Translations under genes and position numbers: made by a program
Shown: positions 315 through 6,192 of the stretch, piece by piece
Layout: each line of letters opens with the position of its first letter
Position numbering within the stretch: the stretch's first letter is position 1
Notes under the pieces: generated by a model
Seen by the model: only the letters and a program-made list of their open reading frames with translations
Database searches by the model: none
Told to the model about the DNA's origin: nothing
Virus record (IMG/VR): IMGVR_UViG_3300028549_003773
Source of the DNA: a virus
Lineage: Duplodnaviria; Heunggongvirae; Uroviricota; Caudoviricetes
Direction: 5' to 3' (one strand)
Length of the DNA: 14,941 bases

Positions 315-1289
315 ATGAACAAAAAACAACTAAAGCATATGCAAAGCATAATTGACACTGTTATAAAAAATAGTGTTGCTAGAAAATTATTTACAACAAC
401 ACAAATTAATGCTGGAGACACTGCATCCATAGTAACTAAGCAAAAAACTTCTTGTTGGGTACTCCCAGGCTTGGGTTATGTAGCACAGAATTTTGTTGAA
501 AATATAAGAGACGAAATATATGTTCCCACGTTTACAATTGATTCGTCTGCTGATTGGCGTATCGTTTGTGACAATACAAAAGTACCAACCCTAGCTGCTA
601 AAAGATGCGCTATGAACTTGTGCAACTATGAGGAAGATTCAGCTTTTGATATAATTATACGGTCTGCGACTACTTCCTTTATAAATAATACTGAGTTAAA
701 TATTTGTAAAATAGCTAAAGGTCTGCCGGGATATGGTTATTTGTCGGTTGAGTTGTTATATGAAATGTTTAAAAGCTTTGAAACACGCAAAAAAACATTA
801 ACCGACATATGTGTAGGACCAAAAGACGTTGAAGATTTAAAAAAATTAGATAATCTGTTTATAGACCCAAAAGGTAACCTAAATATTCTCATAGATTTCA
901 AAGGTAAATCCTATACAGTAGCTGTACATGGAATAGGAAATCTTGGCACAACTGGTAAGTACAATATTAATGGACATACTTCTGAGTTTGGTAAATTTAT
1001 TGCAGATAAAAACAACATTTTTAATAATTATTCACTGTCTAAGCCTAACATACTAACTAGTGAAGGTACTGTAGTTACACAAGGCGAAACCCAAATTTAT
1101 GGTTTTGATAAGAGTATAAAGAAAAATATGATTATGGTTGTTAGAAAAAAATATGAAATTTATAATGACCCTACTCTCCTTAAAGCCCAAAGACATGGAT
1201 TTTTTGGTTGGGAAGAAGTTGGGTATGTTTTTCTTGAGAATTTAAAAAATCCTAGAATATGTATGGGAATTATTGATCGTTCTAAATGA
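315..1289 (+). CDS. HK97-fold major capsid protein-like protein (diverged paralogue)
   Basis: SD AAGGAG upstream; motifs WVLPGLGYVAQNF, YVPTFTIDSSADW, TLTDICVGP, GETQIYGFD, DPTLLKAQRHGFFGWEEVG and MGIIDRS resemble, from memory, the capsid proteins of one clade of large phages. Confidence 0.65.
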   Translation: MNKKQLKHMQSIIDTVIKNSVARKLFTTTQINAGDTASIVTKQKTSCWVLPGLGYVAQNFVENIRDEIYVPTFTIDSSADWRIVCDNTKVPTLAAKRCAMNLCNYEEDSAFDIIIRSATTSFINNTELNICKIAKGLPGYGYLSVELLYEMFKSFETRKKTLTDICVGPKDVEDLKKLDNLFIDPKGNLNILIDFKGKSYTVAVHGIGNLGTTGKYNINGHTSEFGKFIADKNNIFNNYSLSKPNILTSEGTVVTQGETQIYGFDKSIKKNMIMVVRKKYEIYNDPTLLKAQRHGFFGWEEVGYVFLENLKNPRICMGIIDRSK

Positions 1290-1294
1290 ATAAA

Positions 1295-1367
1295 AGGGAT
1301 GTAACTCAATTGGTAGAGTATCTGGTTTTGAGCCAGAGAGTCGTAGGTTCAAGCCCTACCATCCCCG
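1295..1367 (+). tRNA. trnQ: tRNA-Gln(TTG)
   Basis: Cloverleaf; anticodon arm TCTGG-TTTTGAG-CCAGA; T arm GTAGG-TTCAAGC-CCTAC; 1-72 mismatch; G73; no CCA. Confidence 0.9.
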
Positions 1368-1387: not shown

Positions 1388-1696
1388 ATGAATGACTTAG
1401 AATTTCACAAAAGACTTATATCAAGCGTAACTAAACTTGGAGTAGTGGGAGATAAACTACATCACCATATACAAGATGTATGGGACGACGCTATTAAAAG
1501 TGTTACAGTAATAGATAATAGTAAAAAGAATAGTGCTACCGACGAAGATTTGCAATCTTTTAGAGACTTTATAGTGGATTCCACCAATACAGAAGTACTT
1601 GTAGATATATTTGAAGCAGAAACTTTTGATAGGTTGTGGAGTATGACGGATGAAGAATTACAAAAAGAAAAAGAATTTTATGGATATTTAGATTAA
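1388..1696 (+). CDS. Hypothetical protein (102 aa, acidic)
   Basis: SD AAAGGAG, ATG start, phage-like composition. Confidence 0.75.
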   Translation: MNDLEFHKRLISSVTKLGVVGDKLHHHIQDVWDDAIKSVTVIDNSKKNSATDEDLQSFRDFIVDSTNTEVLVDIFEAETFDRLWSMTDEELQKEKEFYGYLD

Positions 1697-2065
1697 TATA
1701 TTAAGGAGGTTGGCTTAGAAGCAGCCATTTGGTACAAGTCCTACTACTTAACGACAGAAATCGTTATTAGCGTCTCAGGGCCAACGTAGCCAAACTTATA
1801 CAAATAAGGGATAGCTATGCCTTTAAAGAGTGGATCGTGATACTTGGAATAGAGACGATAATGGGGAAACCATTACAGACTATTCCTCTATACGGATAGT
1901 AGTAGAACCTAAGATGAACTCTAGGACGTGGCCGTATAAGATGCAGCGGAGTAGTTCACCAGTGACTAGGCTGAGAGTGGTTGACTACTCGTGCCCATAC
2001 CTACACTGCAAAGTTAGACTCAACCATGGATCCTTTGGCGTAACAGCACACTTTTTATATTAATC
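1691..2065 (+). ncRNA. Stand-alone 23S rRNA GTPase-associated-centre (H43/H44) mimic interrupted by two structured insertions
   Basis: 1704-1728 AGGAGGTTGGCTTAGAAGCAGCCAT, 1820-1831 CCTTTAAAGAGT and 2038-2052 GCGTAACAGCACACT correspond in order to 23S rRNA ~1054-1078, ~1079-1090 and ~1091-1105 (E. coli numbering); closed by helix 1691-1700/2056-2065; no other rRNA sequence nearby. Confidence 0.8.
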
Positions 2066-2086: not shown

Positions 2087-2332
2087 ATGATTCAAACAAA
2101 ACATTTAACAATACATAAGTATCGTTTAAATACATTAGTAAATAAATCTAAAAAACTTTTGTTTCCCAGTATACGTGGTACTTTATTACCTAGTTTTGAT
2201 CCACAATATATTGCAGTTGATAGGGTAAAAATATCACCAACTACAACAACTTTTAGTAGAAAGCTAAACGGTATAGCAATAAATTGGTTATGGATAAGGA
2301 TAAAAATAATTGCAAGAGACTTCAGAATTTAA
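2087..2332 (+). CDS. Hypothetical protein (basic, ~81 aa)
   Basis: ATG at 2087 preceded by GAGG/AGG; preferred over the TTG start at 2075. Confidence 0.5.
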   Translation: MIQTKHLTIHKYRLNTLVNKSKKLLFPSIRGTLLPSFDPQYIAVDRVKISPTTTTFSRKLNGIAINWLWIRIKIIARDFRI

Positions 2333-2368
2333 CACTACCACTACAATTTTATATAGGACTTTAAAAAT

Positions 2369-3049
2369 ATGTTAGATGTTTTTATATCAGATGTACATTT
2401 AGGTACAAAAGACAGTGGTTGTGAACTACTCGATAAGTGGTTGAAATTACATAGTAAACAAATAAATAATATATATCTAGTTGGTGATATTATTGATATG
2501 TGGCGTCTTAAATATAAAAGTCATTGGCCACAATCACATGTTAATTTTGTTAGAAGAATATTATCATTTTCAAGGTCAGGTAAAAATGTTTATTATATAA
2601 TTGGTAATCATGATGGACATTTAAATGATTATACCAATAATGACCTATATTTCGAACTAGGTAATATGAAAGTTTGTAGAACTGCGCACTACCACGGGTA
2701 TCTTGTGCTACATGGTGATCAATTTGATCCATACAAAATATTTTCTCATATAGGCGACAGATTATATGGGCTTCTTTGTATGATAGCCGGTAAAAAATCT
2801 GGTAGTATCAAAAATAAAGTTAAAAAATTTTTTCAAGACAAGTTTAAAATGAGAGAGCAAGCTATTAAAGTTGCTATGTCTGGCAAGCATAGAGGAATAA
2901 TTTGCGGTCATACACACGTACCTGAAATTTCCGAATATTACATAAACTGTGGTGATATGATTGAAAATTTTACATTAATTACATTTGAAAATGGTGAAAA
3001 TCCACAATTAATTTATCTAAAAAATGAACAGAATACTCTTAGTAACTGA
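2369..3049 (+). CDS. Calcineurin-like metallophosphoesterase, LpxH/PlcP family (putative phospholipase C PlcP-like)
   Basis: Metal-binding motifs FISDVHLG, LVGDIID, IIGNHD, LHGDQFD, CGHTH; WPQSH segment typical of the PlcP-like branch. Confidence 0.85.
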   Translation: MLDVFISDVHLGTKDSGCELLDKWLKLHSKQINNIYLVGDIIDMWRLKYKSHWPQSHVNFVRRILSFSRSGKNVYYIIGNHDGHLNDYTNNDLYFELGNMKVCRTAHYHGYLVLHGDQFDPYKIFSHIGDRLYGLLCMIAGKKSGSIKNKVKKFFQDKFKMREQAIKVAMSGKHRGIICGHTHVPEISEYYINCGDMIENFTLITFENGENPQLIYLKNEQNTLSN

Positions 3050-4025
3050 CGCGTGGTATCCACAAGTTTCTGGTGTTGTAACTACACTAGAACAGTATTG
3101 TAAACATATAGTAAAAAAACACGCACTTTTTGTTTTAAACCCTACTATGTTTAAAAGATCTTTTCCTTGTCCATCGTATAATGAAATAAGACTTTCTGTA
3201 CCATCTTTTAAAATTATTAATACTATGTTGACACATGTAGATCATATACATATAATGACAGAAGGCCCTATTGGCATTTGTACTGCCATTGTGTGTAAAA
3301 TAATGGGTTACAAATATACAACATCTTTATTAACAAGATTCGACCAGTATGTTGCTGTAGAAAAACCATATGCTGAAAAGTTTATAAATGCTTGTATGAG
3401 AGTTTTTCATTCCGGAGCTGAAAAAACATTCGTGTCTACACAACCGTTAAAAGAAGAATTGGAAGCAAAAGGTTTTAAAAACCTATGTATTATAGTAAAA
3501 GGTATTGATACTGAGCTATTTACTATAAGACCTCCTCATATAAAGAGAGAATACCCAACAATGCTTTATGTTGGAAGAGTGTCAAAAGAAAAGAACCTTG
3601 AAGAATTCTTATCACTTGATATAGAAGGGCAGAAAGTTGTAGTTGGTGACGGTCCGTGTTTCAATGAGTATAAAACTAAATATCCTAAAACTATCTTTAC
3701 TGGAGTTTTACAAGGAGAGAAATTAGCAAATGAGTACTCTTCTGCGGATGTTTTCGTTTTTCCCAGCAAATCTGAAACATTTGGTCTTGTACTAACAGAA
3801 GCTATGGCAAGTGGTACACCTGTAGCAGCTTTACCAAGTCCTTCTTCAAACGTAATAGTAACTCAGGGTGTTAATGGTTTTGTTGACAACGACCTCGCTA
3901 TTGCAATAAAAAAATGTTTGGTTATTGATAGAGAGATGTGTAGAAAATCTGTACTAAAGTACAGTTGGGAAAAATCTACGGACATGTTCCTAAGTAATCT
4001 TGTAAAAAAAATTAACCATTTTTAA
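3024..4025 (+). CDS. GT4 (GT-B) glycosyltransferase, Agt-like glycolipid synthase
   Basis: TDAWYPQVSGVVTTL, HIMTEGPIG, YVGRVSKEKN, VVGDGP, ADVFVFPSKSETFGLVLTEAMASGTPVAA; overlaps the upstream phosphoesterase. Confidence 0.9.
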   Translation: MNRILLVTDAWYPQVSGVVTTLEQYCKHIVKKHALFVLNPTMFKRSFPCPSYNEIRLSVPSFKIINTMLTHVDHIHIMTEGPIGICTAIVCKIMGYKYTTSLLTRFDQYVAVEKPYAEKFINACMRVFHSGAEKTFVSTQPLKEELEAKGFKNLCIIVKGIDTELFTIRPPHIKREYPTMLYVGRVSKEKNLEEFLSLDIEGQKVVVGDGPCFNEYKTKYPKTIFTGVLQGEKLANEYSSADVFVFPSKSETFGLVLTEAMASGTPVAALPSPSSNVIVTQGVNGFVDNDLAIAIKKCLVIDREMCRKSVLKYSWEKSTDMFLSNLVKKINHF

Positions 4026-4943: not shown

Positions 4944-5543
4944 ATGAAATTATTACAAAGATTGAAAAAAGAAGAAAATATTGATCTACCAGAATTTATA
5001 TTATTTAATACAATGTATGCTACATACATGGGTTCTGTAGCTTATGGAGTTTCAGATTTAGGTAGCGATGTAGACATTTACGGGTTCTGTATTCCACCAA
5101 AAGAACATGTTTTTCCACACTTATCAGGAGAGATTTATGGTTTTGGTAATCAGATCAAAAGATTTGAACAATGGCAGAAACATCATATAAATGATAAATC
5201 TTCAGGTAAAGAATACGACATAACGATATTTAATATTGTTAAATATTTTCAATTATGTATGGAAAACAATCCTAATATGATTGATTCTTTGTTTGTGCCA
5301 AGAGTTTGTATTTTACAAAGTACTGCTTTAAGTGAACTTGTTCGTGAAAATAGACATATTTTCTTACATAAAGGGGCTTTTCATAAATTTAAAGGGTACG
5401 CTTACAGTCAAATGCATAAAATGAGAATCAAGGTTCCAGAAGGCTTAAAAGAACTTAAAAACTTTGAAGACACGCATAATATACCACATACTACTTCATT
5501 AGCAGAAATTGAACAAGAAATGCAGCGAAGAGCTTTATTGTAA
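4944..5543 (+). CDS. Pol-beta superfamily nucleotidyltransferase (RlaP/PF10127-like), N-terminal part
   Basis: MGSVAYGVSDLGSDVDIYG catalytic motif, NPNMIDSLF, HKFKGYAYSQMHK; SD AAGGAG. Confidence 0.85.
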   Translation: MKLLQRLKKEENIDLPEFILFNTMYATYMGSVAYGVSDLGSDVDIYGFCIPPKEHVFPHLSGEIYGFGNQIKRFEQWQKHHINDKSSGKEYDITIFNIVKYFQLCMENNPNMIDSLFVPRVCILQSTALSELVRENRHIFLHKGAFHKFKGYAYSQMHKMRIKVPEGLKELKNFEDTHNIPHTTSLAEIEQEMQRRALL

Positions 5544-5604: not shown

Positions 5605-6192
5605 ATGACAAGCGGTGGTTTAAATAAAATAAACTTAGTGGGAGAGATTTTTGGTGGACTTACTGTGATAAAAGAAGCCGACTCTTCTATAAGAGGTTTA
5701 GCTAATTGGTTGTGTCTTTGTGAATGTGGTAATGAATTTATAACAAGTGGTTATTACTTACGACAAGGACGAAAGAAATCTTGTGGTTGTAGAAATAGTA
5801 GACATTACGGAAATAAAAACCCAAGATGGAGTGGTTATAAAGATTTAAGTGGCTCCTATTGGCATAGGGTTCGTCAAGGAGCTTTAGCTAGGGGATTTCC
5901 TTTAGAAATATCAATAGAAGACGCATGGGAGCAATTCATTAATCAAAATAAAACGTGTGCTCTTACTGGACAACCCCTGATAATGTGTGATTCAGCTGCT
6001 AAATCTAGAAAAAATTTAAACTTGCAAACAGCTTCACTTGATAGAATAGACAGCAAAAAAGGCTATATAAAAGGTAATATACAATGGATTCATAAAGATA
6101 TAAATTGTATAAAAATGGACCTCGAACAAAATTACTTTATACACTTATGTGAAATGGTGACCGAATATGCTAAAAAAGTTAGGGGATACTGA
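5605..6192 (+). mobile_element. Free-standing putative homing endonuclease (N-terminal CxC...KSCGC Zn/DNA-binding domain plus His-Me finger/HNH-type nuclease domain)
   Basis: GEIFGGLTVI...WLCLCECG...KSCGC; CALTG...ASLDRIDSKKGYIKGNIQWIHKDINCIK; lies between the two halves of the nucleotidyltransferase. Confidence 0.8.

Follow-up and report, generated by a model that had tools for sequence, protein, structure and literature searches.

A fundamental question raised by this locus is why a tailed phage would carry a piece of 23S rRNA among its tRNA genes. The window analysed here is a stretch of 14,941 nucleotides from the IMG/VR virus record IMGVR_UViG_3300028549_003773, and the initial annotation, made from the letters alone, had proposed that it contains a free-standing, split copy of the GTPase-associated centre (GAC) at positions 1691-2065. 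The whole record measures 69,985 bp and CheckV places its completeness at 26%, which makes a phage of jumbo size probable. The element occurs once in this record. It is ~375 nt long, lies on the + strand between an ORF at 1388-1696 and an ORF that begins at 2087, and has a G+C content of 41-49% vs 23-33% in its flanks. Three collinear GAC pieces (H42-H44 of 23S), two structured insertions (1729-1819, termed A, and 1832-2037, which comprises insertion B and a linker at 2034-2037) and a 10-bp closing helix make up its full length. As read from the sequence, 1691-2065 is a predicted non-coding RNA gene of a jumbo-type phage, a stand-alone and self-closed GAC that consists of the top of H42, H43 and H44.

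The three pieces were found where they had been proposed, at 1704-1728, 1820-1831 and 2038-2052. The first is identical to E. coli 23S positions 1054-1078 at 24 of 25 nucleotides (blastn E 2e-7), and the spliced core (1704-1728 + 1820-1831 + 2038-2052) agrees with the 58-nt E. coli segment 1051-1108 at 47 of 58 positions. The differences from E. coli 23S include a compensated pair, G1058-C1080 (1708/1821), and the second pairing predicted to span an insertion, U1090-A1101, is present as U1831-A2048. A covariance model (R1) built from a MAFFT alignment of 24 other, compact phage copies matches 1796-2060 with 44.7 bits (E 1.5e-12) and 1696-1756 with 25.6 bits (E 8.7e-7), the match falling into two parts owing to insertion A; the rest of the window gave no other R1 match below E 0.03.

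Read from 5' to 3' on the + strand, the element opens with the 5' strand of the closing helix (1691-1700), an H42 extension that forms 10 perfect pairs with the 3' strand at 2056-2065. This AT-rich helix had been thought to replace H42. The helix itself stands, whereas the replacement is incomplete, since the top three pairs of H42 (1703-1705/2051-2053) remain with a G1706.A2050 apposition beside them, and the closing helix continues H42 past two U.U mismatches. The segment 1703-1728, which includes the H43 match, carries the H42 top (1703-1705), G1706 and the 5' strand, loop and 3' strand of H43, with A1067 at 1717 and the U1060.U1078 apposition at 1710/1728. Insertion A (1729-1819) sits between U1078 and C1079, and a fold constrained by the GAC pairs resolves it into two hairpin domains (1729-1733/1780-1784 and 1785-1790/1814-1819). 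Direct reading of 1820-1831 gives the 3' strand of the H43 base (C1079-U1081), the U1082...A1086 turn (1823-1827) and G1087-U1090 of H44. Insertion B (1832-2033) is, in the same constrained fold, a self-closed domain of four or five helices, closed by 1832-1836/2029-2033 with an extension at 1837-1839/2025-2027 and G2028 bulged. A UUUG linker (2034-2037) leads from insertion B to G1091, and the last core segment (2038-2055), read directly and inside the 44.7-bit match, supplies the H44 hairpin (G1091-C1100, C1092-G1099; loop 2040-2045 with A1095 at 2042), A1101-C1102 and then the H42 3' strand. The unconstrained minimum-free-energy fold mispairs the GAC core and was for this reason not used. 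Because they exit the core at fixed sites, we read insertions A and B as putative peripheral expansion domains. Compared with E. coli 23S, neither has significant similarity (the best match is a 12-mer, E 0.05), and a sarcin-ricin-loop hairpin (AGUA-C-GNRA-G-GAA) is absent from both in the window element.

The split architecture recurs widely. Of the 39 IMG/VR contigs that contain an exact 21-mer of H43, two resemble real 23S and the others have the split design; a scan of IMG/VR for the family-specific 3' signature gave at least 120 matches. Extraction from IMG/VR loci yielded 95 distinct copies, so that the family has at least 95 members among the matches listed. The conserved blocks of this set were partly fixed by the search patterns; the covarying positions were not. 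Within the 24-member alignment 88% of cells are paired, 19 of the 26 pairs have changed on both sides, and the covariation score is 0.617, vs 0.16 in shuffles and 0.11-0.18 with slid partners. Among the 95 listed copies, nine positions of the closing helix covary, and every one of them occurs in all four Watson-Crick types; at pair 1058-1080, GC is found in 43, UA in 32, AU in 11 and CG in 3; pair 1057-1081 is AU in 80 and CG in 7; and pair 1082-1086, which makes a tertiary contact in the GAC, is UA in 48, CG in 29 and AU in 8. The covariation at 1058-1080 and 1082-1086 is that expected of an authentic GAC fold. A candidate pairing of the UUUG linker with UAAAG of the 1083-1087 turn was dropped, as the covariation of 1082 with 1086 agrees with the turn of the authentic GAC. 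All 95 listed copies have U1090-A1101, where real 23S has U1101, and the window element shares this pair together with the other family features, namely the covarying closing helix that continues H42, the helix-closed insertion followed by UUUG and a setting in a tRNA array.

These results bear directly on the explanation that would make the element an artefact or a relic, either an assembly chimera with host rRNA or a decaying 23S fragment devoid of function. In its favour, the 25-nt H43 piece is almost the same as its counterpart in bacterial 23S and draws very high k-mer depth from true rRNA in metagenomes. However, the LSU rRNA model detects no other 23S sequence in the 70-kb record, and phage genes flank the element. 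The proposal that a phage bears H43/H44 as a free-standing copy is borne out. Independent metagenomes also contain variants, 88-99% identical, that are split in the same way; the architecture is shared, with compensatory changes, by at least 95 copies and extends to complete genomes of cultured phages; and the U1090-A1101 signature is unlike that of real 23S. Joint conservation of the three pieces in relatives, on which the initial annotation had staked its case, is thus observed, the host-rRNA chimera that it had named as grounds for rejection is contradicted, and we regard an artefact or relic as extremely improbable.

Which positions are held and which are free to vary indicates what is selected. 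Near-invariant in the family are G1071, C1072, A1088 and the pairs 1091-1100 and 1092-1099, which on our understanding of the L11-RNA crystal structures build the base triples of the GAC. The factor-facing or exposed positions A1067, 1096 and 1097 are variable, and this variation fits selection on fold and protein binding more than selection on loop chemistry. Separately, U1061 is changed to A in 18 of the 95 listed copies, with A1077 constant throughout; in vitro, U1061A makes the rRNA fragment more stable in its tertiary fold, and the phage copies may have been selected for such stability.

The insertions are a further feature of the family. One lies between 1090 and 1091 in all 95 listed copies, is 41-369 nt long and has a closing helix that covaries at all five pairs across the family, and the UUUG linker before G1091 is near-invariant in copies found by the H43 pattern alone, a search that left this site unconstrained. 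Insertion B therefore helps to define the family, in which it is ever present and has a covarying closing helix of its own, and is no accident of the window copy. A second insertion, always between 1078 and 1079, is found in 15 of the 95 listed copies, and the window's insertion A (91 nt) is the second longest of those 15. A syntenic metagenome contig (L283), 88% identical across the element, keeps the first A domain and the whole of insertion B but has a different hairpin in place of the second one of A; another relative (L040) has the start and end of the first A domain in common and a shortened second hairpin. In outdoor, sediment and wastewater runs, variants 92-99% identical to the window copy show 17 substitutions within insertion B. 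Seven fall in helices of the consensus fold of five haplotypes, and six of these preserve pairing and one breaks it: pair 1910/1923 has gone from U-A to A-U (both changes counted as one of the six), the change at 1912 turns A.C into G-C, and four others give G.U pairs. The insertions of the window copy are thus under structural constraint.

Such constraint raises the possibility that the GAC fold is a mere scaffold or protein handle and that function resides in the variable insertions, which might, for example, tether a factor to uL11/uL10 or to visitors of the GAC. Insertion B, obligatory, helix-closed and structurally constrained among natural variants of the window copy, is what this explanation would lead one to expect, and subgroups of the family do have common motifs at the start of the insertion. 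On the other hand, insertion sequences are not conserved family-wide, half of insertion A has been swapped between close relatives, the inserts match no Rfam family and no 23S region, and the invariant part of the family is the GAC core itself. For these reasons a handle for the insertions is improbable, although less so than the artefact discussed above. Two observations on individual insertions are of separate interest. The B insertions of two of the 95 listed copies (L008 and L084) carry, around position 223, a stem-closed hairpin of the sarcin-ricin-loop type (AGUA-C-GNRA-G-GAA), and in these copies a single RNA imitates both halves of the ribosomal factor-binding site. A compact member (L019) has a T-arm-like GUUCGAAUC motif inside insertion B.

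Insertions that interrupt a core could also be introns that are spliced out, or could pair with each other, giving a contiguous GAC RNA in either case. Both are preceded by U and end in G, and a run labelled RNA-Seq includes one contig in which 1729 is joined to 1820. One side of that joint is, however, only 23 nt long, and real 23S or family members that have no insertion A explain it; relatives have insertions of as little as 20-41 nt at these positions, too small for introns; and no intron covariance model in Rfam matches at E up to 10. As for mutual pairing, the longest complementarity between A and B is 8 nt, a length reached by 13% of shuffles, and it is not kept in L283. Splicing or pairing of the insertions accordingly has very little to recommend it.

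The element is also present in cultured phages, where it is unannotated. These carriers were found with a short, 35-nt H43 probe and full-length copies were confirmed with R1; with the whole element as a blastn query, 50,697 phage records yielded no match. Pseudomonas phage pf16 has a copy at about 29,413-29,607 of KU873925 (92.5 bits), between tRNA-Asn and tRNA-Pro; Xanthomonas phage XacN1 at about 150,355-150,592 of AP018399 (87 bits), directly after a gene for a 2'-5' RNA ligase; Aeromonas phage 4_4572 at about 75,078-75,367 of MK813943 (84 bits); and Cronobacter phage GAP32 at about 289,512-289,761 of JN882285 (82.8 bits). All four genomes are complete. Pectobacterium phage CBB is also a carrier by the 35-nt probe, and the hosts of the cultured carriers thus comprise Pseudomonas putida, Xanthomonas, Cronobacter, Pectobacterium and Aeromonas. 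A 16-mer scan of cellular genome contigs returned 8 true copies in 120 listed matches, the rest being chance matches of the kind expected for 14 specified bases in 596 Gb of sequence. The true copies are mostly on contigs of metagenome-assembled genomes with up to 25 tRNAs, and these contigs are probably phage.

The element is strictly co-oriented with the tRNA genes around it. The window has eight tRNA genes, all on the + strand, the nearest being tRNA-Gln at 1295-1367 (+). In the loci of the 95 listed copies, 511 of 511 tRNAs are on the strand of the element, 35 copies have a tRNA within 60 nt and many lie between two tRNAs. L283 has a tRNA-His that stops 12 nt short of the closing helix and lacks the protein genes that flank the element in the window (315-1289, 1388-1696 and 2087-4025), a setting from which we infer that the ancestral location is the tRNA array, later invaded by other genes in the window phage. 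No neighbouring protein family is conserved across the family, the maximum being 7 of the 95 listed loci, and any partner of the RNA should consequently be a host component. A gene for uL11 or bL12 was not found in the 70-kb fragment, and a search for a sigma-70 promoter or an intrinsic terminator adjoining the element gave nothing above chance.

Several neighbouring features deserve description in their own right. The ORF at 1388-1696 (+; 102 codons) belongs to no known family and has its stop codon inside the 5' strand of the closing helix; 11 of 15 substitutions in relatives fall at third codon positions, so it is a real gene, and it is missing in other relatives, with L283 having tRNA-His in its place and one wastewater contig linking tRNA-Gln to position 1650 via 12 nt. 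Among the tRNA genes on the + strand are a metallophosphoesterase (2369-3049), an RlaP-type nucleotidyltransferase of the Pfam 'RNA repair pathway' family (4944-5543) and an HNH endonuclease (5605-6192), and these make up an RNA-maintenance island with the Ro60 orthologue at 11817-13364 (+), which has a TROVE domain (E 7e-30), a weak Ro60 vWA match and membership of phrog_850. Bacterial Ro60 works together with Y RNAs, and the non-coding gaps near this gene (about 10166-10379, 10773-11245 and 13365-13661) could hold one, though a search near Ro60 with Rfam at the gathering score found none. The GT4 glycosyltransferase at 3024-4025 (+) also scores on PF20706, 'GT4 in conflict systems' (E 2e-7). 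In L283, as oriented, 7001-7379 is a stretch of ~375 nt on the 3' side of the element that differs from the window and is apparently non-coding; it may be another structured RNA, and this flank also appears in metatranscriptome contigs.

Is the element transcribed in its own right, or is it part of a neighbouring gene? Three libraries from three studies, recorded as metatranscriptomic, each contain one contig, of 266-318 nt, that is confined to the element (within 1712-2052), one of which extends 87 nt into an L283-like downstream flank, and none of the three has a contig for the tRNA-Gln 340 nt upstream. These are assembled contigs at low depth and could derive from contaminating DNA, and the depths of wastewater-run contigs were left out as evidence of expression, those runs being probably DNA. 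The confinement of the contigs to the element suggests that it gives a stable RNA. A rival explanation holds that the element is the cis-acting leader of the downstream gene (2087-2332), whose ATG lies 22 nt past the closing helix with a GAGGA motif before it, or that the 77-codon ORF at 1830-2063 inside the element is a real gene. The downstream gene is nevertheless absent from the syntenic L283, no downstream gene is conserved in the family, and many copies have a tRNA on either side. The inner ORF has 5 of 15 substitutions at third positions, which is no codon-position bias, and one set of its substitutions is a compensatory pair. The element is non-coding, and a leader or a hidden gene is a most improbable reading.

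The initial annotation had raised, as hypotheses, the titration of uL11 or translational GTPases, a dampened activation of RelA and a lure for defence enzymes aimed at rRNA. We propose that the element is a free-standing, trans-acting RNA that would serve as a decoy of the host site to which uL11/uL10 bind, a reading to which we assign a probability of roughly 0.45. The RNA would be transcribed together with the tRNA array and, in relatives, could be freed by the enzymes that process tRNAs. It would then adopt the authentic GAC tertiary fold and lure host proteins that recognise this fold, uL11 first and probably the uL10-bL12 stalk base too, leaving ribosomes or free protein pools short of uL11/uL10-bL12. 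One consequence might be a relaxed, RelA-blind state, as loss of uL11 gives a relaxed, RelA-blind phenotype; another might be a change in the autoregulation of the stalk proteins. The rationale for preferring this reading is that the core needed for GAC folding is kept and no phage protein travels along with it, so that a decoy is the most economical explanation. Several points count against it. Insertion A breaks H43 at U1060.U1078 and insertion B breaks H44, and the fold or the docking of uL11 could be disturbed; the RNA would have to compete with tens of thousands of ribosomes; the gene context, in a fragment that has neither uL11 nor bL12 of its own, points to no partner; and a pure decoy leaves unexplained the insertion that is obligatory in every family member.

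The main rival supposes that the RNA is a decoy of another kind, a substrate for an enzyme that attacks the GAC, whether an abortive-infection effector of the host or the toxin of a competitor, so that ribosomes would be spared. This would parallel, by analogy, the phage tRNAs that replace or shield host tRNAs hit by anticodon nucleases. Enzymes aimed at the GAC do exist: the Rhs toxin Tre23 ADP-ribosylates H44 at 1095-1098 and thereby blocks the GTPase of EF-G (PMC8661411). The element resides in tRNA arrays, and phage tRNAs are reported to be counter-defence genes (PMC11464382, PMC11555353). Counter-defence would also suit a neighbourhood rich in genes of the RNA-repair type (RlaP, metallophosphoesterase, Ro60), the XacN1 copy that follows a 2'-5' RNA ligase gene and the sarcin-ricin-loop-like hairpin in insertion B of two of the 95 listed copies. 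Against the proposal, the loop positions that such an enzyme would read (1067, 1096 and 1097) vary in the family and the stoichiometry relative to ribosomes is unfavourable. The searchable literature yielded no anti-phage system that targets the GAC, and to our knowledge none is known. A decoy substrate is for these reasons unlikely, although it is better placed than a handle for the insertions. A broader statement that spans both kinds of decoy, namely that phages of many hosts use a copy of this rRNA platform to capture uL11/uL10-bL12 or to absorb a GAC-directed effector, with RelA blinded or an rRNA-targeting defence disarmed as a result, is speculative, and we consider it somewhat doubtful; it would constitute a new class of viral counter-measure made from an rRNA domain.

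If such a reading is correct, phages would carry, besides tRNAs, tmRNAs and a few ribosomal proteins, a working piece of rRNA that is used outside the ribosome. It would further mark the uL11 stalk base as the seat of a host process that phages need to control, be it the stringent response, the homeostasis of stalk proteins or an undiscovered defence directed at an rRNA site. For structural work and for work on thiopeptide antibiotics, the family would also supply a natural minimal GAC, tested by evolution, together with sites at which insertions are tolerated. The cultured carriers make the question directly testable.

How, then, does the element compare with known systems? Its closest counterpart is the GAC of 23S rRNA, the 58-nt fragment that binds uL11 and thiostrepton, of which it keeps H43, H44, pair 1082-1086, the A1067 and A1095 loops and the bases that form the tertiary triples. 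It differs in being a separate phage gene, self-closed and outside any 23S rRNA, with U1101 replaced by an A that pairs with U1090, with an insertion and UUUG at 1090/1091 and, in the window copy, with an insertion at 1078/1079 as well. The L10 leader (RF00557), to which L10-(L12)4 binds, is likewise an extra-ribosomal RNA that offers a stalk-region protein a site resembling the one on rRNA. Leaders of this type are, however, cis-regulatory, lie upstream of ribosomal protein genes and are only loosely rRNA-like, whereas the element follows rRNA nearly letter for letter, lies among phage tRNAs and has no conserved downstream gene; Rfam gave no match to L10_leader or a similar family, and the downstream ORF belongs to no family. 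GOLLD and ROOL are structured phage ncRNAs of unknown function, often beside tRNAs; unlike them, the element has a core derived from rRNA, and it has no Rfam match to either.

Phages also encode proteins of the same ribosomal region, bL12 in several cases and uL11 in PhiMa05 (PMC6375957, PMC13157829), and the element resembles these as a component of that region but is RNA rather than protein. The likeness to the phage tRNAs reported to neutralise PARIS or retrons (PMC11464382, PMC11555353) is that both are host translation RNAs copied by a phage, encoded in shared arrays and with one orientation. A tRNA copy can stand in for a damaged host tRNA, whereas a ribosome cannot be mended with a GAC fragment, which can therefore only bind or absorb something. 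Rfam 15, searched both with gathering scores and with a limit of E 10, returned nothing beyond tRNAs and a snoRNA match attributable to chance, and the searchable literature, including papers on phage-encoded ribosomal proteins, yielded no description of a phage GAC mimic, in agreement with the original impression that no such family had been described. The phage GAC-mimic RNAs are, by these two sources, an undescribed family, whose nearest described relations are the rRNA domain itself, the ribosomal protein leaders that loosely mimic rRNA, and the phage tRNAs.
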